64,000 nucleotides of DNA from Candidatus Bathyarchaeota archaeon. Lineage in GTDB: Archaea; Thermoproteota; Bathyarchaeia; 40CM-2-53-6; RBG-13-38-9. A program made the position numbers and the translations under genes. The notes below the pieces were generated by a model. It was given only the letters and a program-made list of their open reading frames with translations, ran no database searches and was not told the origin of the DNA. Shown in pieces: positions 13,689 to 30,249 of this stretch. Numbering within the stretch: the stretch's first letter is position 1; each line of letters starts with the position of its first letter. The stretch lies in NCBI GenBank assembly GCA_963807605.1, contig CAWECG010000001.1:448001-512000 (forward strand), read 5' to 3'.

Positions 13689-13725
13689 TGGTGCGAGGAG
13701 GCGGATTTGGGCACCAATCTACTAG
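13689..13725 (-). repeat. Diverged tRNA-3'-end palindromic (att-like) repeat, copy 5 (outermost)
   Basis: TGGTGCGAGGAGGCGGATTTG-GGCACCAATCTACTAG versus consensus TGGTGCGGGGAGTGGGATTCG-CGCACCAGTTTACCAG. Confidence 0.65.
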
Positions 13726-15804: not shown

Positions 15805-17460
15805 TTGATCGATCCCATTCAAGGGGCTGTCGTGATTCTGATCTTGGGCTCAGTGATCGCCATAGGCCGTTTCCTCGCACCATATGTTACCCGAGTCTTT
15901 GCTCGTACCCCTGGCCGTCTCGACAGAGTCTTGAATCCAATCGAGAACTGGATCTATAGGCTTGGAGGCGTAAATCCAACCCATTCAATGAATTGGAAGA
16001 AATACTTCCTATCGTTGATGTTACTCAACGTTTTCCAAATGGCCCTTGCGTTTCTAATATTCGTATTCCAAGGGAGACTCCCGCTTAATCCTCAAGGGTT
16101 TCCAGGCCTAACATGGGACCTTGCCTTCATGCAAGTCATCTCATTCGGCAGTAATACTAATCTTCAACATTACAATGGCGAGGTTGCGCTTTCGTATTTG
16201 AGTCAAATGGGGGCGGTTCAGTTTCTCCAATTCACCTCAGCCGCGTCCGGAATTAGCGTTGCGGTAGCCTTTGTGAGAGGTTTTGCAAGCGGCTCCAAGG
16301 ACTTAGGCAATTTCTACGTTGACTTTGTGAGGTCTCTGACCAGAGTTCTGTTCCCACTATGCCTTGTAGCGTCTCTGGTCTTTGTTTGGCTCGGCGTGCC
16401 TCAGACCCTTAGCGGGTACACAACAGTGAAGACGGTGGAGGGTGCGACACAACTGATTCTCGTCGGTCCTGTCGCATCTCTAGTCTCTATCATGCAGATT
16501 GGCACTAACGGGGGAGGCTATTATGGAGCCAATTCCGCCTACCCTTTCCAGAATCCAAATCCTGCGTCAAATGTTCTTGAGATCATTCTAATGTTGCTCA
16601 TGCCAACAGTGATGATCTTCATGTATGGCGAGATACTTGGAAAGAAGAGGGAGAGCAGACCCATACTCTGGGCTTCATACGCACTCTTCGTAATCGATCT
16701 CATTATCGCATTTATTCCCAATCCAATATTGGGTCCAGGGATGGAGGTTCGGTTTGGAGGATTCTTCTCAACTTTCTGGACTGTTGTTACGACTGCCGTG
16801 ACGACAGGTTCAGTCAACGCTTCGCTCAATGCCATTCATCCACTCGCCATACTCTCCGCTTTCATGGGGATGCTGATTCAGGCAACGCCAGGGGGCAAGG
16901 GTGTTGGATTGATGTACATGGTCATGTACGTGGTGATCACCGTATTCATCGTTGGGCTCATGTCAGGCAGAACCCCAGAATACTTGGGAATGAAAATCAA
17001 CGCAAGAGACGTTACTCTCGTAATGTGTGCCTTTCTGGTTCACCCGATCATCATACTGATTCCCACGGTACTTGCATACGCAGCAGGAGCCGCAAACGCG
17101 ATAGGTGTAGGAGGCAACTCGATCGGCTACACTCAAATTCTGTGGGAGTTCACATCAGCCGCAGCAAACAACGGCGCAGACTTCCTCGGTGCATCTGCGA
17201 ACACAGTATTCTTCAACATATCAACCGCCCTAGTAATGTTTGCAGGTCGTTTCGCACCAATTGGTTTCCTGATTGCACTTGGAGGCTCGATGATTGGGAG
17301 GAAGAGAAGCGCCGAAGTTGGATTGAAGACTGACAGCATAACGTTCTCCATAGTTCTTGTAGGAAGCACGTTGATCCTTGTTGTTCTGACGTTCTTCCCG
17401 TTCCTCGCACTCGGACCAATCCTTTCCTACTTCCAAGGCCACCTGAACGGGTTCGGGTAA
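15805..17460 (+). CDS. kdpA: K+-transporting ATPase subunit A
   Basis: SNTNLQHY, QIGTNGGG, NSAYPFQNP, TGSVN, GRTPEYLG and SAAANNG. Confidence 0.95.
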   Translation: MIDPIQGAVVILILGSVIAIGRFLAPYVTRVFARTPGRLDRVLNPIENWIYRLGGVNPTHSMNWKKYFLSLMLLNVFQMALAFLIFVFQGRLPLNPQGFPGLTWDLAFMQVISFGSNTNLQHYNGEVALSYLSQMGAVQFLQFTSAASGISVAVAFVRGFASGSKDLGNFYVDFVRSLTRVLFPLCLVASLVFVWLGVPQTLSGYTTVKTVEGATQLILVGPVASLVSIMQIGTNGGGYYGANSAYPFQNPNPASNVLEIILMLLMPTVMIFMYGEILGKKRESRPILWASYALFVIDLIIAFIPNPILGPGMEVRFGGFFSTFWTVVTTAVTTGSVNASLNAIHPLAILSAFMGMLIQATPGGKGVGLMYMVMYVVITVFIVGLMSGRTPEYLGMKINARDVTLVMCAFLVHPIIILIPTVLAYAAGAANAIGVGGNSIGYTQILWEFTSAAANNGADFLGASANTVFFNISTALVMFAGRFAPIGFLIALGGSMIGRKRSAEVGLKTDSITFSIVLVGSTLILVVLTFFPFLALGPILSYFQGHLNGFG

Positions 17461-17470
17461 TTGTGAAAGG

Positions 17471-19633
17471 ATGAAAGAAATGTCAACCAAAAATCATCGA
17501 ACCAGTCTACGGACAGGATTAATGTCCAGCAAGACACTGACCGACTCCTTAGTGAGACTAAACCCCATCTCACTTATCGCAAACCCAGTCATGTTCGTCG
17601 TTGAAGTCACCTTCCTTGTCGTAGCAGCGATGGCTATCTATCCTCAAGGTTTCCTTCCCGTGGCAAGCCCTGGCGAGCGGATCTTCTACATCGAAGTTGC
17701 AGTCATACTGCTCATTACCGTCTGGTTTAGCACACTCTCAGATTCCCTCGCTGAGACACAGGCAAAGAACACTGCGAACAGTCTAAGAAAGCTCGAGACG
17801 GAATCCATGACCAAGAAAATAGTGACAAAAAGTAAGGAGCAGGGAGAAGGCAGACAAGAGGAAAGGACAGTCATTCTTACTCCTTCGACTCAGCTGCGAC
17901 GAGGAGACGTGATCCTGCTTGAGAAAGGAGACATGATTCCTATCGACGCCGAGGTTACCGAAGGCATAGCAATGGTTGACGAATCTCTTCTCACCGGTGA
18001 ATCGATCCCTGTCAGAAAAGCACCTAGTGACCCCTTGATCGGAGGCTCGAAGCTTATCAGTGATACATTGACAGCTAGAGTCACCGTGAATCCTGAAGAC
18101 AGCTACATTAACCAGATGATCCGACTGGTAGAGTCATCAAAGAGACCAAAAACTCCAAACGAACAAGCGGTAGTAATAGTTCTGATAGGTCTCACCGCCA
18201 TCTTTACCATAATCATTTTCGCACTTCTCGGCATATCAGTTGTGCTCAGCCTCGGAGCTGACCTTTCAGTCCTAATCGCATTATACGTTTGCCTTCTCCC
18301 AACCACAATAGGGGCGCTTCTTCCAGCAATCGGTCTCTCTGGGATGTCCAGACTGTATGCGAGAAAGATTGTTGCAAAGTCAGGTAGAGCAATCGAGACA
18401 GCTGGCGACACGGACACAATTCTCCTCGACAAGACCGGCACGATAACTGTTGGAAGTCGACAGGCGATCGAGTTCATACCGTTCGAGGGTCATTCAGAGC
18501 AAGAAGTTGGAGAAGCAGCGTTTCTAGCATCCTGGCACGATGACACTCCAGAAGGGCGTAGCATAATCAGGTTAGCTTACAACAGCGGTTTGATACCGAG
18601 AGATCTGAACGCTCTAGCTCTCTCGGAATCCTACGAGTTTTCCGCTACGACCCGAACAAGCGGAGTGAAGTTCACCGGTGGCACCGGCTTCCTGTTACCG
18701 AAGGGCGCCAAGGAAAGGCGAAGATTTAGACGGAAATTCACGAGTTCCCTAAACGGCTCCATAGGACCCAGCGAAGTTGAGATAATCAAAGGAGCCCCCG
18801 ACGCAATAAAGCAGATCGCAAAATCTTACCCCAATGACTTCGATGCCGTCATCAACAGGATTTCCAATGAAGGCGACAGCCCCGTCGCCATCGCTAAGAA
18901 CCGTGAGATAATCGGCATCATTCGGCTAAAAGACATCCTGAAGACAGGCATCGAAGAGAAGATTCAAGCCGTCAAAGCAATGGGCATACGACCCGTGATG
19001 ATAACTGGAGACCATCCACTCACTGCCAGAAGCATCGCAGCTGAGGTTGGGATCGATGAGTATGTGCCGCAAGCAAAGCCTGAGGACAAGCATGGAATAG
19101 TCCTCCGAGAGCAAGCCAACACGAGAATTGTTGCGATGATAGGCGACGGAACCAACGACGCACCCGCCCTCGCCGTTGCCGACGTAGGCCTCGCTATGAA
19201 CTCTGGAACACAGGCAGCAAAGGAAGCGGCGAACATGGTGGATCTTGAGTCCAACCCTGCAAAGATCATAGAGGTCGTTATGCTTGGGAAACAGCTCCTC
19301 ATGACTCGTGGAGCTGTAACTACCTTCAGCATCGCAAATGACGTTGCGAAATACTTCGCAATAGTACCGGTTCTCTTTACAGTTGTCCCCGTACTTCAAG
19401 CCCTGAATATTCTGCATCTCGGATTGCACAGCGCAGTGCTCTCGGCGTTGATATTCAACGCAATCATAATCCCGCTTCTAATTCCTTTAGCCATGAAGGG
19501 CGTATCCTTCAAGCCCTCAGACACAATGACCTTGTTCCTGAAGAACACAATGATCTATGGTGTAGGCGGGGTCATAGTTCCATTTGTCGGAATCAAGCTG
19601 ATAGACATCGCCCTCGAGGCGATTCACGTTTAG
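17471..19633 (+). CDS. kdpB: K+-transporting ATPase subunit B
   Basis: NPVMFVVE, TGES, CLLPTTIG, DKTGT, GDGTND and TFSIANDVAKYF. Confidence 0.95.
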   Translation: MKEMSTKNHRTSLRTGLMSSKTLTDSLVRLNPISLIANPVMFVVEVTFLVVAAMAIYPQGFLPVASPGERIFYIEVAVILLITVWFSTLSDSLAETQAKNTANSLRKLETESMTKKIVTKSKEQGEGRQEERTVILTPSTQLRRGDVILLEKGDMIPIDAEVTEGIAMVDESLLTGESIPVRKAPSDPLIGGSKLISDTLTARVTVNPEDSYINQMIRLVESSKRPKTPNEQAVVIVLIGLTAIFTIIIFALLGISVVLSLGADLSVLIALYVCLLPTTIGALLPAIGLSGMSRLYARKIVAKSGRAIETAGDTDTILLDKTGTITVGSRQAIEFIPFEGHSEQEVGEAAFLASWHDDTPEGRSIIRLAYNSGLIPRDLNALALSESYEFSATTRTSGVKFTGGTGFLLPKGAKERRRFRRKFTSSLNGSIGPSEVEIIKGAPDAIKQIAKSYPNDFDAVINRISNEGDSPVAIAKNREIIGIIRLKDILKTGIEEKIQAVKAMGIRPVMITGDHPLTARSIAAEVGIDEYVPQAKPEDKHGIVLREQANTRIVAMIGDGTNDAPALAVADVGLAMNSGTQAAKEAANMVDLESNPAKIIEVVMLGKQLLMTRGAVTTFSIANDVAKYFAIVPVLFTVVPVLQALNILHLGLHSAVLSALIFNAIIIPLLIPLAMKGVSFKPSDTMTLFLKNTMIYGVGGVIVPFVGIKLIDIALEAIHV

Positions 19634-19645
19634 GAGATTATCAAA

Positions 19646-20083
19646 TTGAACAAGCATGATTATGGGCCCACCGTCAGACTGGCTATTATCTCACTTGTAT
19701 TATGCGGGCTAATCTTTCCCCTGTTCGTAACAGGATTAGCGCAACTCCTGCTACCCTATCAAGCAAACGGGGAGATAATCCAGTTCAATGGACGTTATGT
19801 CGGTTCCATTCTGATTGCACAGAATTTCAGTTCACCCATGCTCTTCCATCCAAGAAATGATTCAGCTTCCGGCGTGGATCCCGACATTACTCTTCAGGAC
19901 GGTTATTCTCAGATTCCAAGGATCCAGGCAGCAACTGGAATCCCCTCGGAAGTACTCAAACACGTTGTTGATGAAAACGTCGAGAGAACGTTATGGGTTG
20001 TTGGCGAACCATACGTTAACGTCCTCAGACTCAACCTGGTACTTGTCAAGGAAAACCCTTCAATTTACAAGTCATTCAGCTGA
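19646..20083 (+). CDS. kdpC: K+-transporting ATPase subunit C (short form)
   Basis: N-terminal TM, QANG, GSILIAQNF, SASGVDPDI and GEPYVNVLRLN. Confidence 0.92.
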   Translation: MNKHDYGPTVRLAIISLVLCGLIFPLFVTGLAQLLLPYQANGEIIQFNGRYVGSILIAQNFSSPMLFHPRNDSASGVDPDITLQDGYSQIPRIQAATGIPSEVLKHVVDENVERTLWVVGEPYVNVLRLNLVLVKENPSIYKSFS

Positions 20084-20238: not shown

Positions 20239-21279
20239 TTGTGTCTTGGGGCAGTCCTAATGAATGGAAAGCTCCACCAGCAGATTCTGATCTGGTGGCG
20301 GGCCTTCAGATATCACTTCGTACCACCAAGTATATTTCCAGCTACATTGGGGGCGGCGATCAGTTTGAGTGTTGATAAAACCTTTTCCACGGAGATTTTC
20401 TTTCTCGTTCTGCTAGGTGTGGTCGTGAATCATTTTGCTCTAAACATGACAGATGACTATTATGACTTCAAACACGCTGTAGATCAACAGAAACCCGGAG
20501 AAAAGAACCCGTACACTGGTGGAAGTGGCACCCTAAGCAGCGGCCTCATAACGCCACATCACATGTTGATGGCTTTTGTCGTATGCTACGGCATTACAAC
20601 TGGAATCGGAATTTACCTTGCTTGGATTAAAGGCTGGCCCATCTTGGCATTTGGAATGTTTGGCGTTTTCTGCTCGATCTTTTACACGATGCCTCCCATA
20701 AGTTACTCTCATCATGGGTTAGGCGAGCTAGGTCTCCTTGTGAACTTTGGATCAATCATAGGTTTAGGCTCCTATTTCGTTCAAGCTCACAAGCTCTCGC
20801 TGCAGGCTTTTCTAGCAACGTTACCTATGGGAATAATGCTATTCTCCATGATAGTGATAAACGAAATTCCAGACTATGAGACAGACAAGATGGCGGGAAA
20901 ACTGACTCTTGTCGCTAGATACGGTAAGAAGGCGGGCATAAAAATCTACATTTTGAGCTGGATCTGCACTTATTCAGTGATAATCGGCGCCGTTGCCCTT
21001 CAGTTAATCCCCAGGCTCTGTGTAATCGCGCTGGCCTCGGTCCCTCTGGCCTACAGATCAATCGAGTTTCTGAAACATCACTATAACAGCCCCACGGAGT
21101 TGGCACCGGCAAATCTTGATATGATCAAGGCTCACAGCGTCACCTCCATAGGCCTTATCGCCGCTTATGCTCTACAAGGGTTGATCAATGGAGCCAGCGC
21201 TGTCCAGTTGGGCATAATTATCCTGCTATTGGTGGGGTTCTACGCCCCAGCGGCGATCCCTCTGCTGAAAAAGCACTAA
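20239..21279 (+). CDS. UbiA-family prenyltransferase, MenA-like
   Basis: NMTDDYYD, TGGSG, GLGELG and NEIPDYETDKMAGKLTL; multiple TM helices; start may be ATG 20260. Confidence 0.8.
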   Translation: MCLGAVLMNGKLHQQILIWWRAFRYHFVPPSIFPATLGAAISLSVDKTFSTEIFFLVLLGVVVNHFALNMTDDYYDFKHAVDQQKPGEKNPYTGGSGTLSSGLITPHHMLMAFVVCYGITTGIGIYLAWIKGWPILAFGMFGVFCSIFYTMPPISYSHHGLGELGLLVNFGSIIGLGSYFVQAHKLSLQAFLATLPMGIMLFSMIVINEIPDYETDKMAGKLTLVARYGKKAGIKIYILSWICTYSVIIGAVALQLIPRLCVIALASVPLAYRSIEFLKHHYNSPTELAPANLDMIKAHSVTSIGLIAAYALQGLINGASAVQLGIIILLLVGFYAPAAIPLLKKH

Positions 21280-21446: not shown

Positions 21447-22316
21447 ATGAAAAAGCTGCTAGGTTTCATAAAAATGACCAGACCATACGTCCTTCTATCT
21501 TCAAGTTTCATTTTCATCGGTTCCGCATTCCTTGGTGTTAAAGGCATCCCATCCGCGTGGCCTTTCTTCATAGGCTATTTGGCAGTAGTCTTGGCGACAG
21601 CAGCCGTACACACATTCAATGATTATTCCGATTGGAAAACCGATGCCAAGAACCCGAGAACTTCAAAACGGCCGATCCCAACTGGTTTGATATCGCCGAA
21701 CGAAGCTCTCTTGGCTGCGCTGGCTTACGGGTTGGGCGCACTTGCATTGGCTCTTCTGCTTAATACCCCTTCATTCTTGATAGCTCTAGTTGCCGTTCCT
21801 ACACCCTTCGTTTACGCCTACTTCAAAAGACATAGAATTCCCTTCGGCTTCATCTGCCCAGCAGCCGCGGCAATTCTCCTAACACTCTTCGGAGCCGCAA
21901 CATTGACAGGTGAAGTCATGGCTGGCCAAGTGTGGCTCTTATTAGTTGTGAATCTACTTTGGGAGCCTGGGCGCGATTTCATTAGCGAGATCCAAGACTC
22001 GTCAGTCGATAAGACCTCAGGGTTCCTCACATTGCCAGTCATCTTGTCGCCAAAAGGAGCCGCTAAATGTGTTCTTGCTCTTTTTGTAATGACCTCAATT
22101 GCAGGTGTACTAGCAGGAATACCTGCAAGACTTGGAGGTCCATATCTCATTATTGCCTTGTTAGCGGGTATTTGGCTGACTTACAGAAGTACAGAGATTG
22201 TTAAAGAGCCGACCACTAAGAATGCTGTGAAGATGCGGATCCGTGCTCCGAGATACCTGATGGCAATTGTTATTGCCATCATAATTGGCCACATCATTGG
22301 TGGCAGCATAATATAA
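21447..22316 (+). CDS. UbiA-family prenyltransferase (DGGGP synthase/UbiA-like)
   Basis: MTRP, NDYSDWKTD, RPIPTG and EIQDSSVD..GFLTLP. Confidence 0.82.
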   Translation: MKKLLGFIKMTRPYVLLSSSFIFIGSAFLGVKGIPSAWPFFIGYLAVVLATAAVHTFNDYSDWKTDAKNPRTSKRPIPTGLISPNEALLAALAYGLGALALALLLNTPSFLIALVAVPTPFVYAYFKRHRIPFGFICPAAAAILLTLFGAATLTGEVMAGQVWLLLVVNLLWEPGRDFISEIQDSSVDKTSGFLTLPVILSPKGAAKCVLALFVMTSIAGVLAGIPARLGGPYLIIALLAGIWLTYRSTEIVKEPTTKNAVKMRIRAPRYLMAIVIAIIIGHIIGGSII

Positions 22317-22687: not shown

Positions 22688-23989
22688 TCACAGACATTGA
22701 CCCTCAGTTTTCAGCGCTTCCTTCAAGATCTTTACGGCACAATATCCGGAGCACATTGAACACGTCTCGGGATTTTTCAGTCTGATTCTGTCGCGAATCT
22801 TCGCGGCTTTCTCTGGATCCAAGGCATTCTCCAGCTGACTTTCCCAATCAAGGTTCGCTCTAGCTTTTGCCATGGCCAAGTCACGAGCGGCCGCTTTTGA
22901 TCCAAGCTTTGCAATGTCGACTGCGTGTGCCGATATTTTGGTAGCCATAACACCTTCTTTAACATCTTCTAAAAGGGGCAAACCCAGATGCTCTGAAGGC
23001 GTCAGGTAACAAAGGAAGTCAGCTCCGGCGAGTCCTGCAAGGGCTCCACCGATAGCTCCAACGATGTGGTCGTATCCCGGTGCTATCTCAGTTCCAAGGG
23101 GACCTAGTACATAGAGAGGCGCCCCCTTGCATATCGACTTTGCAAGCAGAACATTTGATTCTATTTCGTTAAGCGGTAGATGCCCAGGTCCTTCAACTAT
23201 AGCTTGTACATTTGCAGTCCTGGCTCTTTCCACGAGTTCTCCTATTGTGAGCAACTCCTGAATTTGAGGCCAGTCGGTTGAATCGAAAATGCATCCTGGT
23301 CTAAGGCCATCGCCTAGGCTTAGTGCAAAGTCGTATTTTGCAGCCAATTCCAGAAGGTAGTCGTAGTTTGCGTACAAGGGATTTTCTTTATTATGATGCA
23401 GGATCCATGCGGCTAGAAAGGTGCCTCCGCGGCTGACAATTCCCATCAGGCGTGGGTGCTTTGCTATCCGTTTGACGATTTGTTGTGTTACCCCGCAATG
23501 GACTGTCATGAAGTCAACGCCATCTTTGGCGTGTTCTTCTATCGTGTTGAAGATGTCATCTTCGGTCATGTGTATAATTGAGCCCCTCTTCTCAGATGCT
23601 TCGATAGCGGTTTGATATATGGGGACGGTTCCAATTGGAACATTAACATTCCTAAGAATCGACCTTCGTATATCATTCAAGTTGCCGCTTGTGCTAAGAT
23701 CCATAATGGTGTCTGTGCCATACTTGACAGCGATCTTAGCCTTCTCGATTTCTAAATTGAGATCACATAAGTCAGGGCTTGTTCCTATGTTTGTGTTGAT
23801 TTTGGTGCGCAGCCCTTTTCCAATTCCAATTGGATGAACATTTTCGCGTTGATTATTTCTGGCTATGATTACGGTTCCTTCAGCTATTCGTTGACATATC
23901 GTTGAAGGCAGCTCATCTTCATCCTTGGCTACTGTACGCATTTCTTCTGTTATTTGTCCCTTCTTCGCAAATCCTATTTGGGTTGCCAA
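22688..23989 (-). CDS. thiC: Phosphomethylpyrimidine synthase
   Basis: TKINTNIGTS, DTIMDLS, GTVPIYQ, SRGG, EGPGHLP, PGYDHI and C-terminal CSMCSGYC. Confidence 0.93.
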   Translation of the reverse strand: MATQIGFAKKGQITEEMRTVAKDEDELPSTICQRIAEGTVIIARNNQRENVHPIGIGKGLRTKINTNIGTSPDLCDLNLEIEKAKIAVKYGTDTIMDLSTSGNLNDIRRSILRNVNVPIGTVPIYQTAIEASEKRGSIIHMTEDDIFNTIEEHAKDGVDFMTVHCGVTQQIVKRIAKHPRLMGIVSRGGTFLAAWILHHNKENPLYANYDYLLELAAKYDFALSLGDGLRPGCIFDSTDWPQIQELLTIGELVERARTANVQAIVEGPGHLPLNEIESNVLLAKSICKGAPLYVLGPLGTEIAPGYDHIVGAIGGALAGLAGADFLCYLTPSEHLGLPLLEDVKEGVMATKISAHAVDIAKLGSKAAARDLAMAKARANLDWESQLENALDPEKAAKIRDRIRLKNPETCSMCSGYCAVKILKEALKTEGQCL

Positions 23990-24064
23990 ATTGATTTATC
24001 GCTCCAACCCAAGAAAAGCCGAGTTAGATCTGAGTTAGAGTGCACCAAATCAGGAATTCGGTAC

Positions 24065-24156
24065 ACGCCCCCTCCGCCAGCATTATCTGAATGAGGTTCT
24101 AGGGTCGGCGGTTCACCAGACCGCCCTCTCAGCCGGCTAACCAGCTCCCCTGGCGC
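24065..24156 (-). promoter_or_regulatory. TPP (THI-box) riboswitch upstream of thiC
   Basis: Minus strand GCGCCAGGGGAGC...GCTGAGAGGGCGG..CCGCCGACCCTAGAACCTCATTCAGATAATGCTGGCGGAGGGGGCGT: conserved GCUGAGA, ACCC, GAACCU, UAAUGC and GCGGAGG elements; P1 GCGCC/GGCGT. Confidence 0.92.
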
Positions 24157-24402
24157 TTGCTTGTCTGAAATCGACAATACTCCGGAATTTAAAGTCTTTT
24201 GTAGATACCTGCATAACTGTTCTAGCGCGCGCCTGAAGTATATGTCGGCTGGATAGAGATAACCGTGCGCGCTGACGTCGAGGAAGGTTCATATGTGCAA
24301 TATCGGAAGGGGTAGGCATTGTTAGCTCCTCAGTGAGCGTTAGCCGAAAAAGAGTCGGTAGACAAAGGGTCGCGATATCACAATAATCATGATGAAAGAG
24401 AT

Positions 24403-27393
24403 TTGCTCACAGGACACGCCTCGCTTCAAGAAGAACTAGAAGACATTGAGACATACGCACAGCCTTTATCCAAAATATCAGAAAAGTGGGGTTCAGATCT
24501 TGAACGTGGTCTCTCCGACAATGAAGCCAAAGAAAGACTTCGAGAATATGGTCTGAACCTAATTCCAAAGATAAAGCCTAGCTTTTACAGGATATATCTT
24601 GCACCCTTCCTCAATTGGCTGATAGATATCTATTTGATTATTAGCATAGTCTTGGCATTTCTTGCATTCTTCGTGCTGCATGAGGCTTATGGGCCAGTAA
24701 CCTTCTGGCTCTCAGTGATTAGTGTCAACGCCGTCGTAGCCGTGGTGCAGGAGGCCAGAGCGCAAAAGAAAATGGAGGCGCTCCAGAAGCTTTCCGCTTC
24801 AAAGAGCAAAGTAGTCCGAAAGGGTAGGCTCCTCGAAATACCATCAGAGCAGATAGTTCCAGGAGATATCATAAGACTTGAACAGGGAGACAGAATCCCT
24901 GGTGATGCTAGGATCATCAACGCGTCGAGCCTCAGGGTGAATGAAGCATCTCTAACTGGAGAGTCTGAAGAAGTAGAAAAATTCGAGGACGACACACCAG
25001 TTGAACAGGGCACTCCTATTCCCGGAAGGAGAGACATGGTATTTCTAGGCACATTCGTGATTGCAGGCACGGCAAAGGCACTGATAACACAGACTGGAAG
25101 AGCAACTCAACTCGGAAGAATAGCAGGGAACATGGAAGGCCTTGACACTTATGAAATACCTCTACGCACTAAAGTCAACCGGCTGGCAAAATATCTTGGG
25201 CTTGCTGTTTTGACTTATCTCAGCATCTCGCTAACATATCACATAACTTCTCTTTACTTGCACAATAACCTCTTCGTAGCGGGTATCTTCAACACACCAT
25301 TAGTAGCAAGAAGAGTAGTCGAAAGCTTGATCACGGCTATGTCGATCATGCCAATCAATATCCCATTTTTAATTACAGTTGTTCTTCTCACCGGTGTTTT
25401 GACTATGGCCAATAAGCAAGTCATAATACGCGATTTGAATGCCGTTGAGAGCCTTGGTCGAGTATCCATAGTTTGCTCCGACAAAACTGGTACCATCACT
25501 AGAAACGAAATGACGGTAAAGTGGATTTGTTTACTTTCTAGTCGAAAAGATTACCTTTTCGGTGTCACGGGTGTCGGATTCCGCCCCAACGGAAGGATCA
25601 TAGAAATCGATCCAGATTCAAGTTTCGAAGAGACTATTAAAAAAGAGCCCGAACTTCATCATGGAAATGAGATCGAAATAGGATCTGAAACGCCTCTTGA
25701 ATACCTTATCGTATCAGGATTGCTCAACAACGACAGCACAATCACCAAAGGAATGGTGGAGAGCCCTGACGAGGAGAGAGAGGAAGATGCTTACCGTCCC
25801 TTAGGCGATACTACTGACGCCTCGATAGTAACATTATTCCACAAATCAAAACTCCAGGAAGAAATATACAGATCTAGATTTCAAGAAGCCTTCAATTATC
25901 CGTTTGATTCAAATTTAAAGCGTACAACAAGAATCCTCAGAGACAACAAGAACAACCGATATGCTGTTTTTACGAAAGGAGCTACCGAGATCCTCCTACC
26001 ATTTTGTAACTACATCACAAAAGGCGTCGTCACTGAAGTGGACATCCTAACAGACAAGGAGAGGGCTCAAATCTGCACAAGAGCCGATGGTTTCGCGTCG
26101 TCAGGTTATAGGGTCATCTCATTTGCTTTCAAGTATCTGGAAGAACTACCGTCGGCCAGTAAGAGCGTAAGAGAACTTGCTGAGGATAATCTAACCTATC
26201 TCGGCTTCGTGGCCATCATCGACCCCCCAAGGAAGGATGTTCACGAATCGGTGCTTGAGGCTAAGAGCGCAGGAATAAAACCTGTCATGATAACCGGCGA
26301 CAACTTGAAAACGGCGCGAAGCATCGCAGAGCAAGTAGGAATCGCCGGAGAACTCGATTTGGCTGTCGAAGGACATGAAATCCAGACCCTACCCGATGAA
26401 GATTTCTTGAGAACGTCTGTGTTTGCTAGAGTCACTCCAGAACATAAAATGAGTATAGTGGAACGTTACAAGAGACAGGATCACGTTGTGGTGGCAACTG
26501 GCGACGGTGTCAACGATGCACTGGCGATCTCTGTAGCTGATGTCGGCATCGCTATGGGCATTACTGGAACGGACGTTGCAAAAGAGGCTGCAGACATTGT
26601 AATAGCAGACGACTCGTTCAACTCAATTATTAGAGGTATCCGTGAGGGCCGAGGTCTCTTTCAGAAAATTCGAGCCATAATTTTCTTTTACATAGCGGTA
26701 AACCTCGCGGAAGCCTTGATCTATTTTGGTTCTTCATTAATCCCCAGCTTTCATCTACTGAACATGGCGCAACGTATCTATATCTTCACTACAGCGCATA
26801 CGATACCACCACTCGGGATTATTGTAGATCGCGTAAGTAAGGATGTGATGAAAGAAAAGCCACGAGACACAGAAGCCATTTTGAATAAACGACTGGTTAT
26901 CGCGCTCCTACTCTTTTCAGCATCATTGGGACTCATGCTTTATGCTGTCTATTTCTTCACCCTGGGCGGTACCATTCCTGTCTTCGCAGGAAACAGAATA
27001 GGATATGTTCCGGACTTCAATCCCAACAATCTCTTAGACTCAGTTAATTGGAGTCAGGCGAAGGCTCGCACAATGCTGCTTACGGTCATATTTGTGGCAG
27101 AGTGCGCATTGGTAATCTCCTTAAGAAGGATGAACAAATCGTTCAGCAAAATATTAAAAGAAGACAATTATTGGATTATCTGGCCGCTCATACTGTTCGT
27201 TCCACTAGCTCATGTGTTATTGATGTATGTCCCAGCGATTCAATTGTTTCTGGCAGTTCGCTTAGGTATTGATCTCGAACTTATTACACTTACATGGATC
27301 GATTGGATTATTGCTTTCGCTGTTGGATTGACTCCTATCGCGTTATTGGAGGCTTGCAAATATTGGGTGCGCAAGAAAAGATCCAACTTTTAG
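24403..27393 (+). CDS. P-type ATPase with P2A-like scaffold and non-canonical transport site
   Basis: TGES, DKTGT, KGATE, DPPR, MITGD and GDGVND intact; M4 reads MPINIP rather than IPEGLP. Confidence 0.88.
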   Translation: MLTGHASLQEELEDIETYAQPLSKISEKWGSDLERGLSDNEAKERLREYGLNLIPKIKPSFYRIYLAPFLNWLIDIYLIISIVLAFLAFFVLHEAYGPVTFWLSVISVNAVVAVVQEARAQKKMEALQKLSASKSKVVRKGRLLEIPSEQIVPGDIIRLEQGDRIPGDARIINASSLRVNEASLTGESEEVEKFEDDTPVEQGTPIPGRRDMVFLGTFVIAGTAKALITQTGRATQLGRIAGNMEGLDTYEIPLRTKVNRLAKYLGLAVLTYLSISLTYHITSLYLHNNLFVAGIFNTPLVARRVVESLITAMSIMPINIPFLITVVLLTGVLTMANKQVIIRDLNAVESLGRVSIVCSDKTGTITRNEMTVKWICLLSSRKDYLFGVTGVGFRPNGRIIEIDPDSSFEETIKKEPELHHGNEIEIGSETPLEYLIVSGLLNNDSTITKGMVESPDEEREEDAYRPLGDTTDASIVTLFHKSKLQEEIYRSRFQEAFNYPFDSNLKRTTRILRDNKNNRYAVFTKGATEILLPFCNYITKGVVTEVDILTDKERAQICTRADGFASSGYRVISFAFKYLEELPSASKSVRELAEDNLTYLGFVAIIDPPRKDVHESVLEAKSAGIKPVMITGDNLKTARSIAEQVGIAGELDLAVEGHEIQTLPDEDFLRTSVFARVTPEHKMSIVERYKRQDHVVVATGDGVNDALAISVADVGIAMGITGTDVAKEAADIVIADDSFNSIIRGIREGRGLFQKIRAIIFFYIAVNLAEALIYFGSSLIPSFHLLNMAQRIYIFTTAHTIPPLGIIVDRVSKDVMKEKPRDTEAILNKRLVIALLLFSASLGLMLYAVYFFTLGGTIPVFAGNRIGYVPDFNPNNLLDSVNWSQAKARTMLLTVIFVAECALVISLRRMNKSFSKILKEDNYWIIWPLILFVPLAHVLLMYVPAIQLFLAVRLGIDLELITLTWIDWIIAFAVGLTPIALLEACKYWVRKKRSNF

Positions 27394-27472
27394 TCTCGTT
27401 GGAATCTTCTGAGGTCAATGTTTTACAGACACAAAAAATTCGAGCACGCTAGAGCTTCGTATTCGTGTGTAC

Positions 27473-27516
27473 AGTAAAATGGTGCGGGGGAGGGGATTCG
27501 CGCACTACTTTATTAG
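27473..27516 (-). repeat. Diverged tRNA-3'-end palindromic (att-like) repeat, copy 4; overlaps aglB stop
   Basis: AGTAAAATGGTGCGGGGGAGGGGATTCG-CGCACTACTTTATTAG versus AGTAAATTGGTGCGGGGAGTGGGATTCG-CGCACCAGTTTACCAG. Confidence 0.75.
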
Positions 27517-30249
27517 CTTGCTCACGGTCACTACCACTATCTTGCTTGTCATAGCCGCGTATTCTGCCGTTCCGGTCCACGATGCTCGCACATAATAGAC
27601 ACCTGCAGCCTCGGGAAGCCATTGAGGCGTGAAGACACCTTCTGCGGGCTGCCCAACTATCGTTGGAACCCAAGTCTTATTGTCCTTGCTCGTCTCAACG
27701 GTCACCTGCCCCTCTGAGAGCGGCGGAGATATCCTTACATCAACGCTCACATTCTTGCCGAAACCGACTATTGTTGGCGCCACAATCAACTTCACCTCTG
27801 GCATTCCCTTAGTGACGTTTAGTGCCTGGTAGGGGCTTGTTGCTGACGCATATTTGTCAGGAAGACCATCCCACCGAGCCCTGACCAAGTATCCGCCAAT
27901 AGATGGCGCCCAGACGTAACTGTAAGTTCCGTTCCCAGCCGTCTGGACGTCTTTTATGGAGAGCCAAGTACGGCCTTGATCCTCGGAGGATTGAAGATGC
28001 ACCGTTCGGTTGCCTAAAGGCCTTGACTCCTGATCGACGAGATTTCCTGAAAGCTGCTCCTTCTCAGGAAAGCTCACATTCATGCTTGCCAAGTTCAAGG
28101 TCATGTTGGTCCTTGTCAAGTATTTTACGTCATAGACTAGCACGAACCTATTTGATGAAATGAAGACAGGTCTGAAGAATTCATTCCCTTGAACCGGGGA
28201 GTAAGCGCCGGCCATCAACAGTCCGAGCAGTGTTGAGTTTGAGACTCCAACGTTATTGACTATGGTCTTGTTTGAGACAATCTTGTCAGCCACAGTTAGT
28301 ATACGGTCGTATCGTGTGTAGGCTGCCTGTCCTTCACCGACCCTCCTCGCGTAGTAGTATACAGTCTCGCCATCGAGTGTAGAGCCGTTGCTTATCCTAG
28401 CCATCCAATACCATTTGCTATCTTCACCAAAGCCGTAGAAGTGGACAGTATTGTTGCTGTTATACCAGGTTACTAGCAAAGTGATGTCGCTCACATTGTA
28501 TCTCTTCAGTATGGGCAGGGCTGTATCCAGATCAGAAAGAAAAGCGCGGCCAGTAACCGATATTTGGGTTGTGTTCATCGTTCCGTTATCTGTAAGAGTC
28601 TTCTTACCGCCAACGGTTGTTATCCAGTAGCCATAGTCCCACCAGGCAAGGACGACAGCATTGTTTGGGAGATTATCCTTCATCCACGTTAAAGCTTCAA
28701 GCCAGTCTCCAGGCGGGTTACTCACGACGGGAAGACTCGAAGTGACTATAGTGGCTGGAACATAAGCTGACTGGACGGCGCCAATAAATGTTGGTGTGAT
28801 TATCAAGAGCAGAACAAACATTATGGCAACACCGAATTCCTTGCCGACCTTTGTTGTGAAGCGGGTCTTTCTCTTTGGGAATATTACTTGTTCTCTTATG
28901 ATGTCCATAGCGGGTGTAGCAATCTGAGTGACCGCAATCGCTGCTAGAAGCGCAATAGCAGGCGCCATTATCGTCGAAGTTCTTACAAGGGACGCTCCAA
29001 AATATATGGTGGTGAGCCCAAAGACAATTATGAATATGTCACTGTTCCTGTGACGTTGAATAGCGAAGTAGAACCCGAATAGTGCAAGCAGAGGATATAT
29101 GCCAAGCTCGTGGTATATGCTGGCCCATGTGGCCATACGATTTTCTGCGACAGACTCTACTATCGGCATGTCAACTCTGTTTGAAGGATAAAGGACTGTC
29201 CAAAACTTGCCACCCAGTTCACTTATCAAGTGATGTTGTTGAAGGATAAAGGCTCCAACTATTAGAAGCAGAAGAACAGCTAAAATCCCTGACAGTCTAG
29301 TCCTATTGTTCTTGACTCTTTGGAAGAATTCGTATCCACAGAGTATTACAAATACCCCCGGGATAGCGTAGGTTGTCCATTCGCTTAGTGCTTGATAGCC
29401 TAGGTTTGGAAGCTGCACCATCACTAAGAAAGCAGAGCCGTAAGTGATTCCATAGGTCCAAAGGAGACGGCCATAGTATCTACCGAAAAGAGCAAGAACG
29501 AATACGAAAAGTGGTATAAGCGACAGTGCATACCGATAGGCCCCCCATCCTGCGCCGAGATAAGCCAAAGAGAGTCCCGACAGAAGTGAGCAGATTATGC
29601 CTGACCTTAAGGAACGTTCAGGAGAGATAGCCTTCAAATAGAAGTAAAATGCAAGAATAACCGTAAACACTCCTATTGTGTCATCCCCAAAGAAGCCTGC
29701 ACTCGTACGAAAGATATGCGCTGAATTGAAAGCTAGAAAGAGTGCCGAGAATATTCCGACACCGCGCCCCCACATGTCTCTTGAAAAAAGATAAAGGGCA
29801 ACGCATGCAGCTGTACCAAGGATTACTGGGAAGATTACGCAAAGGTCTAGTAAAGTGATCTGAATACCCACCGATTGTAGGAAAAGGTACAGCAACGCTG
29901 CCGTCATGGCCACCCCTGGATAGGCCTGTGTGATGAAGGGGCGGCCCCAAGGGTACCAGCTCATAGTATCGTGCCAACTGAAGTATGAGGTGAATCCATT
30001 GTTCACCATATACTCTGCTTGACGATAATTCACGTAAGGATCAAATTCTGTCAGGTAAAATCCCCATCTCAATGGAAGAATACGAATAAGAGCTGCCAGA
30101 CCAGCTATAACGGCAACACACAGAAAGTTCAGGTATGAAGCTCTTGGGATACTGCCGAGTGAGAGTCTAATATCACTAGCCCTGCGAGGAACCCATTCTT
30201 TCACAAAGGTTCTCACAGAACCTAGGAGCCCGGCTTTATAGTTGGTCAA
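27505..30249 (-). CDS. aglB: STT3/AglB oligosaccharyltransferase with C-terminal Ig-like beta-sandwich repeats
   Basis: EFDPY, SWYPWGR, SVAE, WWDYG and DNGT; multi-TM N-terminus; two repeats ending Y.VRA.W.G. Confidence 0.88.
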   Translation of the reverse strand: MTNYKAGLLGSVRTFVKEWVPRRASDIRLSLGSIPRASYLNFLCVAVIAGLAALIRILPLRWGFYLTEFDPYVNYRQAEYMVNNGFTSYFSWHDTMSWYPWGRPFITQAYPGVAMTAALLYLFLQSVGIQITLLDLCVIFPVILGTAACVALYLFSRDMWGRGVGIFSALFLAFNSAHIFRTSAGFFGDDTIGVFTVILAFYFYLKAISPERSLRSGIICSLLSGLSLAYLGAGWGAYRYALSLIPLFVFVLALFGRYYGRLLWTYGITYGSAFLVMVQLPNLGYQALSEWTTYAIPGVFVILCGYEFFQRVKNNRTRLSGILAVLLLLIVGAFILQQHHLISELGGKFWTVLYPSNRVDMPIVESVAENRMATWASIYHELGIYPLLALFGFYFAIQRHRNSDIFIIVFGLTTIYFGASLVRTSTIMAPAIALLAAIAVTQIATPAMDIIREQVIFPKRKTRFTTKVGKEFGVAIMFVLLLIITPTFIGAVQSAYVPATIVTSSLPVVSNPPGDWLEALTWMKDNLPNNAVVLAWWDYGYWITTVGGKKTLTDNGTMNTTQISVTGRAFLSDLDTALPILKRYNVSDITLLVTWYNSNNTVHFYGFGEDSKWYWMARISNGSTLDGETVYYYARRVGEGQAAYTRYDRILTVADKIVSNKTIVNNVGVSNSTLLGLLMAGAYSPVQGNEFFRPVFISSNRFVLVYDVKYLTRTNMTLNLASMNVSFPEKEQLSGNLVDQESRPLGNRTVHLQSSEDQGRTWLSIKDVQTAGNGTYSYVWAPSIGGYLVRARWDGLPDKYASATSPYQALNVTKGMPEVKLIVAPTIVGFGKNVSVDVRISPPLSEGQVTVETSKDNKTWVPTIVGQPAEGVFTPQWLPEAAGVYYVRASWTGTAEYAAMTSKIVVVTVSKLIK

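Follow-up and report, generated by a model that had tools for sequence, protein, structure and literature searches.

A 64,000-nucleotide stretch of a Candidatus Bathyarchaeota archaeon genome (contig CAWECG010000001.1, positions 448,001 to 512,000; here referred to as the window) carries a complete gene for a 996-amino-acid P2-type P-type ATPase, located on the forward strand at window positions 24403 to 27393. Judged from sequence, this pump and its relatives, here referred to as the PINIP/His family, are a derived offshoot of P2A-like pumps in which the ancestral PEGL/N...D transport site has been replaced. On balance, we read the window pump as a single-site pump, probably for a small cation that is not Ca2+. 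What defines a P-type ATPase subfamily is the set of residues at its transport site, and the site of this large, old, and monophyletic clade matches no described subfamily.

Catalytic motifs and transport-site residues

The open reading frame (ORF) begins with TTG and is unbroken over 996 codons, and its completeness is supported by the ORF list and translation, by Pfam, and by an AlphaFold2 (AF2) model. The predicted protein contains the Pfam domains Cation_ATPase_N, E1-E2_ATPase, Cation_ATPase, Hydrolase, and Cation_ATPase_C. Its catalytic motifs, all on the forward strand and read directly from the DNA, comprise the A-domain dephosphorylation motif TGES (residues 185 to 188, positions 24955 to 24966, within the loop LTGESEEV at residues 184 to 191), the phosphorylation motif DKTGT with D360 (positions 25480 to 25494), and the P-domain hinge motif GDGVND (positions 26500 to 26517). 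The hallmarks of the P-type ATPase superfamily are therefore all present: DKTGT, a TGES-type loop, TGD, GDGxND, and the M4 proline. When we compared catalytic residues, hidden Markov model (HMM) matches, and Pfam profiles in 47 diverse family members, every catalytic residue was invariant, including G186 and E187 of the TGES motif, the DKTGT motif, and G700, D701, G702, N704, and D705 of the hinge motif. Against solved Ca2+-ATPases, the window pump scored E = 1.5e-114 (HMMER; Listeria LMCA1); given this value and the complete P2-type Pfam architecture, its identity as an ATPase is far beyond chance. The window copy deviates at 6 of the 168 alignment columns that are ≥90% conserved among 185 family members, against a family median of 4, which argues that the gene is not a decaying copy. 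An earlier note, made by reading the window alone, had described the catalytic motifs as intact and had inferred an active pump. The motifs are as described, and the window pump looks like an active, stand-alone P-type pump whose catalytic competence is supported at the motif level.

The membrane part of the protein departs from the P2A pattern. M4 reads P317-I318-N319-I320-P321 in place of PEGLP (positions 25351 to 25365), and M6 reads QRIYIFTTAHTIPP (positions 26770 to 26811), with Q790, F795, and the run H799-T-I-P802. We derived residue equivalences from HMMER alignments to Listeria LMCA1 and to SERCA2, a sarco/endoplasmic reticulum Ca2+-ATPase (SERCA). In these alignments, SERCA E309 corresponds to I318, G310 to N319, N796 to F795, T799 to A798, and D800 to H799, so that an aromatic residue occupies the N796 position and a histidine the D800 position. 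Three ligand residues are kept: N768 and E771, both belonging to site I, as N767 and E770 in the M5 motif NLAE (positions 26701 to 26712), and E908 as E900 in M8 (positions 27061 to 27129; E900 codon at 27100 to 27102), a helix flanked by K887 and R908-R909. The side-chain ligands of Ca2+ site II, namely the M4 PEGL Glu, the M6 Asn, and the M6 Asp, are absent family-wide and are I318, F795, and H799 in the window pump. The earlier note had read MPINIP in M4 and an altered M6, had matched E309 to I, N796 to F, T799 to A, and D800 to H by eye while seeing N768, E771, and E908 retained, and had concluded that site II was gone. The DNA and the HMMER alignments reproduce each of these assignments, and all three site II side chains are indeed replaced.

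We next consider how far these changes extend beyond the window copy. Relatives came from a word-indexed search and from HMMER, run exhaustively over 1.84 billion cluster representatives. Conservation was computed over 140 full-length members, and the addition of proteins from 78 metagenome loci, collected by the pattern MPINIPLLTT, gave 185 nonidentical sequences. All relatives above ~450 bits have P-[IVLFMW]-N-[ILF]-[PIV] in M4 and T-x-H-[ST]-x-P in M6, and PEGLP proteins appear only below that score. Among the 140 members, conservation in M4 is 100% for P317, 96% for N319, and 92% for I318; in M5 it is 96% for N767 and 100% for E770; in M6, Q790, H799, and P802 each reach 99%; and E900 in M8 is 92% conserved. 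E770 is present in 185 of 185 members and H799 in 184, and the full N319/N767/E770/H799/E900 signature is found in ~165 of the 185, down to roughly 33% identity. A few members read PISIP, PVSIP, or PWSFP in M4. The check that the earlier note had proposed, conservation of PINI and of the M6 histidine in homologs, thus finds close homologs without PEGL. Drift in the window copy alone is ruled out by this family-wide conservation and by the 6 deviations in 168 columns, and the alignments indicate that the PINIP/His change is a conserved family trait.

The site residues also vary in concert. One protein from a JGI metagenome (P0122) has N319S, N767S, H799Q, and E900Q together and keeps E770, while its sister lineage (P0061) keeps N319, N767, H799, and E900. 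Because these four residues are changed together in the one and kept in the other, they appear to form one functional unit. In a Hodarchaeales-type subclade, E900I is always accompanied by His893, two helix turns along M8. According to these alignments, the five-residue site is both conserved and covarying at the canonical position. Two related observations were made. The block-altered site (S319/S767/E770/Q799/Q900), seen in P0122 and in the partial protein P0157, may be a natural specificity variant. The E900I/His893 subclade consists of P0076, P0077, P0080, P0083, P0090, P0106, P0115, P0120, and P0123, and His893, a second membrane histidine, occurs in about a third of the whole family.

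Family-specific membrane changes were defined against 39 PEGL relatives. In the family, the E309 position is hydrophobic, G310 is Asn, N796 is F, Y, W, or V, T799 is A, V, or T, and D800 is His. Additional aromatic residues occur at positions 763 (Y or F; L in the relatives), 774 (Y; I or V in the relatives), and 897 (F or Y). Where SERCA has D59, E109, and E113, and at an exoplasmic Asp/Glu position in M2, the family carries Asn or Gln; the acidic losses include D59 to N, E109 to Q, and E113 to Q. Counted over all M1-M6 columns, with no positions preselected, acidic residues average 3.2 in the family and 9.5 in the PEGL relatives, while aromatic residues average 23.4 and 14.8, respectively. 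The family's M1-M6 region is also less acidic than those of the P2C-like, P3A, and P3B pumps of the host genome, and its membrane domain is amide-rich. The drop in M1-M6 acidic residues from 9.5 to 3.2 disfavors a hard divalent cation such as Ca2+.

The structure prediction that the earlier note had called for agrees with this picture. The AF2 model of the window pump (predicted local distance difference test [pLDDT] score, 84; predicted template modeling score, 0.76) has its best fold matches in SPCA1 and SERCA (TM-score up to 0.77), followed by Na,K-ATPases, and no P4 or P5 structure is among its top 50 fold matches. In the model, the M4 helix breaks at residues 316 to 318 and the M6 helix at 797 to 800, with pLDDT values of 81 to 95 in those blocks. 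Because M4 and M6 are unwound there, the model would place N319 and H799 at the spots that P-type pumps use for their ion sites. Elsewhere in the membrane domain, the outer loop between M7 and M8 (residues 856 to 886, window positions ~26968 to 27060) is lengthened in the family by an insert, with N864 and P870 conserved, that is not present in the PEGL relatives. In Na,K-ATPase, the M7-M8 loop binds the beta subunit; by analogy, a partner protein or an outer gate at the insert is conceivable.

Placement and distribution of the family

Among NCBIfam models, the only cutoff that the window pump passes is that of the generic P-type model TIGR01494 (265.9 bits; cutoff, 62.3). It misses the cutoffs of the SERCA- and PMR1-type models TIGR01116 (392.9 versus 703.4 bits) and TIGR01522 (418.6 versus 798.3 bits), and we do not file it as a Ca2+-ATPase because it lacks the defining Ca2+ ligands and falls short of the equivalog cutoffs. 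Ranked by subfamily HMM, its best match is the PMR1-type model (418 bits), followed by the SERCA-type, P2D, P2B, P2C, and P3A (348 bits) models, then P3B and, far below, P5 (216 bits), P1B, and P4 (114 bits). The cutoffs for P3A (TIGR01647), P5 (TIGR01657), and P4 (TIGR01652) are 615.5, 618, and 431 bits, respectively; the P3A pumps of the same genome pass theirs, and the window pump has PINIP in M4, without the PPxLP of P5 pumps. The set of models matched is identical for the 47 members, with best E values in nearly the same order, and none does much better on the P2A models (best E value, 3e-162). Ordinary PEGL relatives score 725 to 778 bits on the PMR1-type model; set beside the 418 bits of the window pump, these values indicate that the family has moved much further away from that model. 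The Cation_ATPase_N and Cation_ATPase_C architecture is found in 47 of 47 members, and none of them has a PhoLip_ATPase_N or PhoLip_ATPase_C match at E ≤ 0.01. The earlier note had held, from TGES, that the pump is not a true P4 ATPase; the missing PhoLip_ATPase domains and the scores of 114 bits for P4 and 418 for PMR1-type bear this out.

The phylogeny, also suggested at that stage, was inferred with FastTree (83 rows) and IQ-TREE (45 rows). The named outgroup consisted of ordinary P2A pumps returned by a scan of genome contigs with generic DKTGT and TGDGVND patterns. In both trees, which set the family among prokaryotic PEGL pumps and other pumps of the host genome, the PINIP/His clade is monophyletic with a support of 100 and a stem of ~0.32, and it lies inside the radiation of prokaryotic PEGL pumps. 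Kinship to P4 and P5 was judged through HMMs, domains, and fold only. The P2C-like, P3A, and P3B pumps of the host genome fall outside the clade, as do KdpB and P1B pumps.

The named relatives are overwhelmingly from Asgard archaea (Odin-, Njord-, Atabey-, Hod-, Thor-, Heimdall-, Prometheo-/Loki-, and Helarchaeal lineages). Outside this group, Korarchaeota, Nitrososphaeria, and Bathyarchaeia contribute single cases, and so does one bacterium, Dehalogenimonas formicexedens, in which the gene lies on a 2.09-Mb contig. In the subclade of the window pump, sequences from Odin-, Njord-, and Atabeyarchaeia are mixed with those from Nitrososphaeria, Bathyarchaeia, and the one Dehalogenimonas. When 301 genomes of its class were scanned, the host genome (2.65 Mb, 94% complete) alone gave a match at E ≤ 1e-150, and no family match was found in 401 genomes of Chloroflexota. 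The family is centered on Asgard archaea, and its distribution outside them is patchy and accessory.

In addition to the window pump, the host genome encodes two P3A H+ pumps, two P3B Mg2+ pumps, KdpFABC (with KdpB), one P2C-like pump, and five P1B pumps. A canonical PEGLP Ca2+ pump was not found in this genome. The P2C-like pump (G000:C1:386655-389429; L013, 1156 to 3930) has VPEGLQ in M4, SHNWAE in M5, and IDLGID in M6; it clusters with a Methanobacterium protein and is consistent with the archaeal group of Na,K-ATPase-like pumps that Palmgren discussed in 2023. Two near-identical CPC-type P1B pumps lie 265 kb apart (G000:C3:310333-311850 and C3:575221-576738; L001 and L002), and two P1B-like pumps have an odd M4, with SCPS in L004 and GACG, without CPx, in L005.

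Candidate cargoes and their rivals

What the pump carries, which way it carries it, and what the histidine does are inferred as follows. In the reading that we favor, the family descends from PEGL-type P2A Ca2+ pumps by a rebuilding of the transport centre. The SERCA-type site II is filled in by the exchange of E309 for Ile and of N796 for Phe, Tyr, Trp, or Val, and the Asp800 shared by both sites is now His799. The site I ligands N767 and E770 in M5 and E900 in M8 are kept, a new Asn, N319, lies in the unwound part of M4, and amides have taken the place of the acidic M1 and M2 residues that line the paths by which Ca2+ enters and leaves. We read the result as a single occluded site for a small cation other than calcium; it would load from the cytoplasm in E1, expel its cargo in E2P, and be reset by TGES-driven dephosphorylation. 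That the cargo is an ion rather than a lipid is suggested by the invariant E770, the 99% conserved His, and the 92% conserved Glu at SERCA site I positions.

Two kinds of ion come into question. H+ or another monovalent ion is possible, and we put it forward tentatively, because the acidic funnel is lost, only two carboxylates are left, and the E770-H799 pair may resemble the P3A Asp-Arg pair. By analogy, E770 and H799 would take the role of the P3A pair Asp684-Arg655, and the protonated histidine would act as a built-in countercharge, releasing the proton and triggering dephosphorylation. We are more doubtful about a borderline divalent metal (Zn, Fe, Co, Ni, or Mn). For such an ion, one imidazole, two carboxylates, and two amides would make up a ligand set of classical type, its charge balance being -2.

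Several points weigh against a single-site pump for a small non-Ca2+ cation. The convergence of the five side chains on one site is deduced from SERCA equivalences and covariation. An additional H+ pump would be redundant with the two bona fide P3A H+ pumps of the genome, and the failure to find a canonical Ca2+ pump there leaves room for Ca2+ or Mn2+. For a metal, His-rich stretches were found in 0 of 140 members and CxxC in only 6, so that metal-binding tails rich in His or Cys are lacking; a metal-responsive regulator or riboswitch is likewise missing nearby, and the conserved neighbors are uninformative. An organic cation or a polar head group would fit the extra aromatics and amides of the membrane core as well. 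The loss of D800 does not by itself exclude Ca2+, because CtpE transports Ca2+ without the M6 Asp (PMC10654040).

That last point belongs to an alternative in which the family still pumps Ca2+ (or Mn2+ or Mg2+) through a modified site I. Carbonyls of the M4 backbone would build this site together with N767, E770, E900, and N319, and His799 would do no more than shape it. In favor of this, three of the five SERCA site I ligands are retained, and the best HMM and fold matches are of the PMR1/SPCA type, which carries Ca2+ and Mn2+. In a genome without a canonical PEGLP/N...D P2A pump, this would also be the only Ca2+/Mn2+-type P-ATPase. We nevertheless consider this quite improbable, since E309, N796, and D800 are all replaced, two of them by hydrophobic or aromatic residues, the acidic M1/M2 entry and exit residues are lost along with two-thirds of the M1-M6 acidic complement, and His is a poor ligand for Ca2+ and Mg2+. 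To our knowledge, moreover, all single-site Ca2+ pumps use site II, the very site that is missing here. The aromatic residues gained at 763, 774, 795 (F, Y, or W for N), and 897, the higher M1-M6 aromatic count, and the two retained carboxylates would fit a pump for an organic cation or polar solute, such as a polyamine or quaternary amine, bound by Glu/His and an aromatic cage in the manner of P5B. This, too, is unlikely: the P5 match of 216 bits stems mostly from the cytoplasmic domains, M4 has no PPxxP motif, the aromatics may simply fill the space of the lost site II, and no polyamine or amine metabolism genes recur near the pump in the 78 loci.

The earlier note had leaned toward a lipid or organic substrate on the strength of the neighboring genes, and a flippase for a lipid or lipid-linked glycan, as an archaeal analog or forerunner of P4, would account for the Ile after the M4 proline (as in PISL, with PISIP, PVSIP, and PWSFP in a few members), for the acid-poor, amide-rich membrane domain, and for the Asgard-centered family. 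The neighbors themselves are real: the window gene adjoins the STT3/AglB gene (positions 27505 to 30249, reverse strand) and lies near two UbiA genes (20239 to 21279 and 21447 to 22316). However, UbiA, AglB, and ThiC homologs are absent within four genes of the pump in all 78 related metagenome loci, and in the window these neighbors either are set apart from the pump gene or lie in one segment with it, within a mosaic whose segments join at the octamer GCGCGCGC (see below). The lean drawn from the neighborhood is thus unsupported, while the active pump, the lost site II, and the exclusion from P4 stand. The flippase is made very improbable by the rest of the evidence as well: TGES instead of DGET, Cation_ATPase_N/C in 47 of 47 members with PhoLip_ATPase_N/C in none, the lowest HMM score on the P4 model, no P4 among the top 50 fold matches, a clade nested in the PEGL P2A pumps, and conserved, buried E770, H799, and E900. 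P3A proton pumps likewise have a hydrophobic residue after the M4 proline. Least probable of all, and hardly credible to us, is a protein that transports nothing, either a sensor or regulator or a gene in decay. The gene is largely deleted in a relative of the same genus, which would fit decay, but the 168 columns that are ≥90% conserved in 185 members include the catalytic and site residues, the window copy is off at only 6 of them, and the family is old with several subfamilies.

There is also a small chance that the family moves something other than an inorganic cation, such as an organic amine, the head group of a polar lipid, or a glycan linked to a lipid. If so, prokaryotes would have their first P-type pump of this sort, possibly a relative or functional forerunner of the eukaryote-only P4 and P5 pumps, and the Bathyarchaeia copy would have been obtained by horizontal transfer. 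Whichever cargo applies, its identity would point to an ion or solute for which Asgard archaea share a need and would show a route from a Ca2+ site to a different transport site. Public databases annotate family members as Ca2+-transporting ATPases, and a transporter census of Asgard genomes took "putative Ca2+ ATPase" orthologs as support for Ca2+ signaling (PMC7997004). If those orthologs belong to the PINIP/His family, that inference would have to be re-examined. The Bathyarchaeia copy, the D. formicexedens ortholog, and a natural deletion in a sister genome offer experimental handles.

Genomic setting and comparison with known pumps

The pump gene is set among kdpABC, the two UbiA genes, thiC with a thiamine pyrophosphate (TPP) riboswitch, and aglB. 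The kdpA-kdpB-kdpC operon lies upstream of the pump at positions 15805 to 20083 (forward strand), with a short KdpC frame of 145 amino acids compared with a 182-position Pfam model. The riboswitch precedes thiC at positions 24053 to 24161 on the reverse strand (Rfam RF00059; 61.8 bits versus a gathering score of 54.3) and is unusual in an archaeon. Rfam families were absent from 16 family loci, and in the window this riboswitch, on the strand opposite the pump, was the only one. Recurring neighbors in the 78 loci are an S8 subtilase, a major facilitator superfamily (MFS) transporter, panB, a PHP protein, and LonB, a set that looks like lineage synteny without a functional clue. In about a dozen loci (including L103, L128, L139, L150, L153, L159, L161, L164, and L167), tandem paralogs lie on one strand, with a PINLP type upstream of a PINIP type and the Asn/Glu/His site in both; they could represent a division of labor or a two-pump unit.

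The window contains 11 copies of the palindromic octamer GCGCGCGC, where 0.37 are expected, at positions 1886, 12513, 15177, 22514, 24225, 30720, 44037, 45304, 47506, 59278, and 63860. The octamer lies between gene blocks (kdp plus ubiA, thiC, and pump plus aglB), bracketing thiC (22514 and 24225) and the pump-plus-aglB segment (24225 and 30720), and its placement suggests a cassette or recombination system whose junctions it marks. The copy between the thiC leader and the pump gene (24225 to 24232) is also where similarity to a sister genome ends. In that genome, of the same genus (G087), contig C333 carries the 5' end of thiC and its leader with 96% identity to window positions 23817 to 24216, followed by ~186 unrelated bases, GCGCGCGC, a stub of the pump gene, and a second GCGCGCGC. 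The stub (C333 positions 588 to 820, aligned with window positions 27185 to 27417) is the sole surviving part of the gene and corresponds to the last 207 nucleotides (69 codons) of the ORF and 24 nucleotides downstream (window positions 27187 to 27417, forward strand; 98% identity). Since this 3' remnant stands beside the thiC leader, the pump was once present at the same site in the sister species, where a recent deletion has cut it down to the stub. By these comparisons, the pump gene is accessory in this lineage and sits within a recombination-prone mosaic. The mixed subclade and the stub would fit a self-contained function in ion homeostasis or resistance. We also considered 28-bp palindromes at 13689 and 27480 as brackets of a 13.8-kb block, and dropped them when a repeat search did not pair the two, which have only a TGGTGCG start in common.

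Among known systems, the closest are the P2A pumps (Listeria LMCA1, PDB 9euq, 6zhf, and 6zhh; SPCA1/PMR1; and SERCA), which are the best sequence and fold matches of the window pump and share with it the ten-helix architecture, the Pfam domains, and the catalytic motifs, including TGES. Unlike them, the family has undergone the five M4 and M6 substitutions described above (E309 to I, G310 to N, N796 to an aromatic residue, T799 to A, V, or T, and D800 to H), lacks the acidic M1/M2 entry and exit residues, retains about one-third of the M1-M6 acidic residues, and has the M7-M8 loop insert. The P3A pumps (AHA2/Pma1 and, in the same genome, L016 and L017) resemble it in having a hydrophobic residue after the M4 proline (P-V-A-L-P in L016 and L017), a single residue in M6 that can be protonated, and a conserved M2 Asn (N109), and in lacking a polar ligand where SERCA has N796. 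These P3A-like features of M4, M6, and M2 are what suggest a proton pump. In contrast to P3A, the family has His where M6 would carry Asp, retains Glu in both M5 and M8, has no M5 Arg, and lies outside the P3A clade. For the metal version of the single-site pump, the P1B-4 Co/Zn/Fe pumps offer a chemical analogy and nothing more: their M6 HEGxT motif sets a His beside carboxylates as a borderline-metal ligand, and they belong to a different class with eight helices and an SPC motif in M4.

As in the PISL motif of P4 flippases, an Ile follows the M4 proline in PINIP, at a position where P3A pumps likewise have a hydrophobic residue, and the membrane core is acid-poor and amide-rich as in P4. 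The family differs from P4 in having TGES rather than DGET, no PhoLip_ATPase domains, and conserved, buried Glu and His, and P4 gave the lowest HMM score of all models tried. In a full-text literature search for the motif and for Asgard P-type ATPases, whose incomplete coverage makes this absence of evidence only, we found no description of the PINIP/His family. A 2023 review by Palmgren recognizes P1 to P5, a new P6 family (CtpE), and two orphan mycobacterial pumps, expects more prokaryotic families, and describes nothing that matches the PINIP/His motif (PMC10654040). The mycobacterial P6 pump CtpE, which keeps PEGL and has Ile in place of the M6 Asp (PMC10654040), offers a parallel, being another prokaryotic P2-like lineage that lacks the M6 Asp and is recognized as its own family. 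Unlike P6 as described in that review, the PINIP/His family has lost PEGL and carries a His in M6, and whereas CtpE is bacterial, the PINIP/His family is centered on Asgard archaea.

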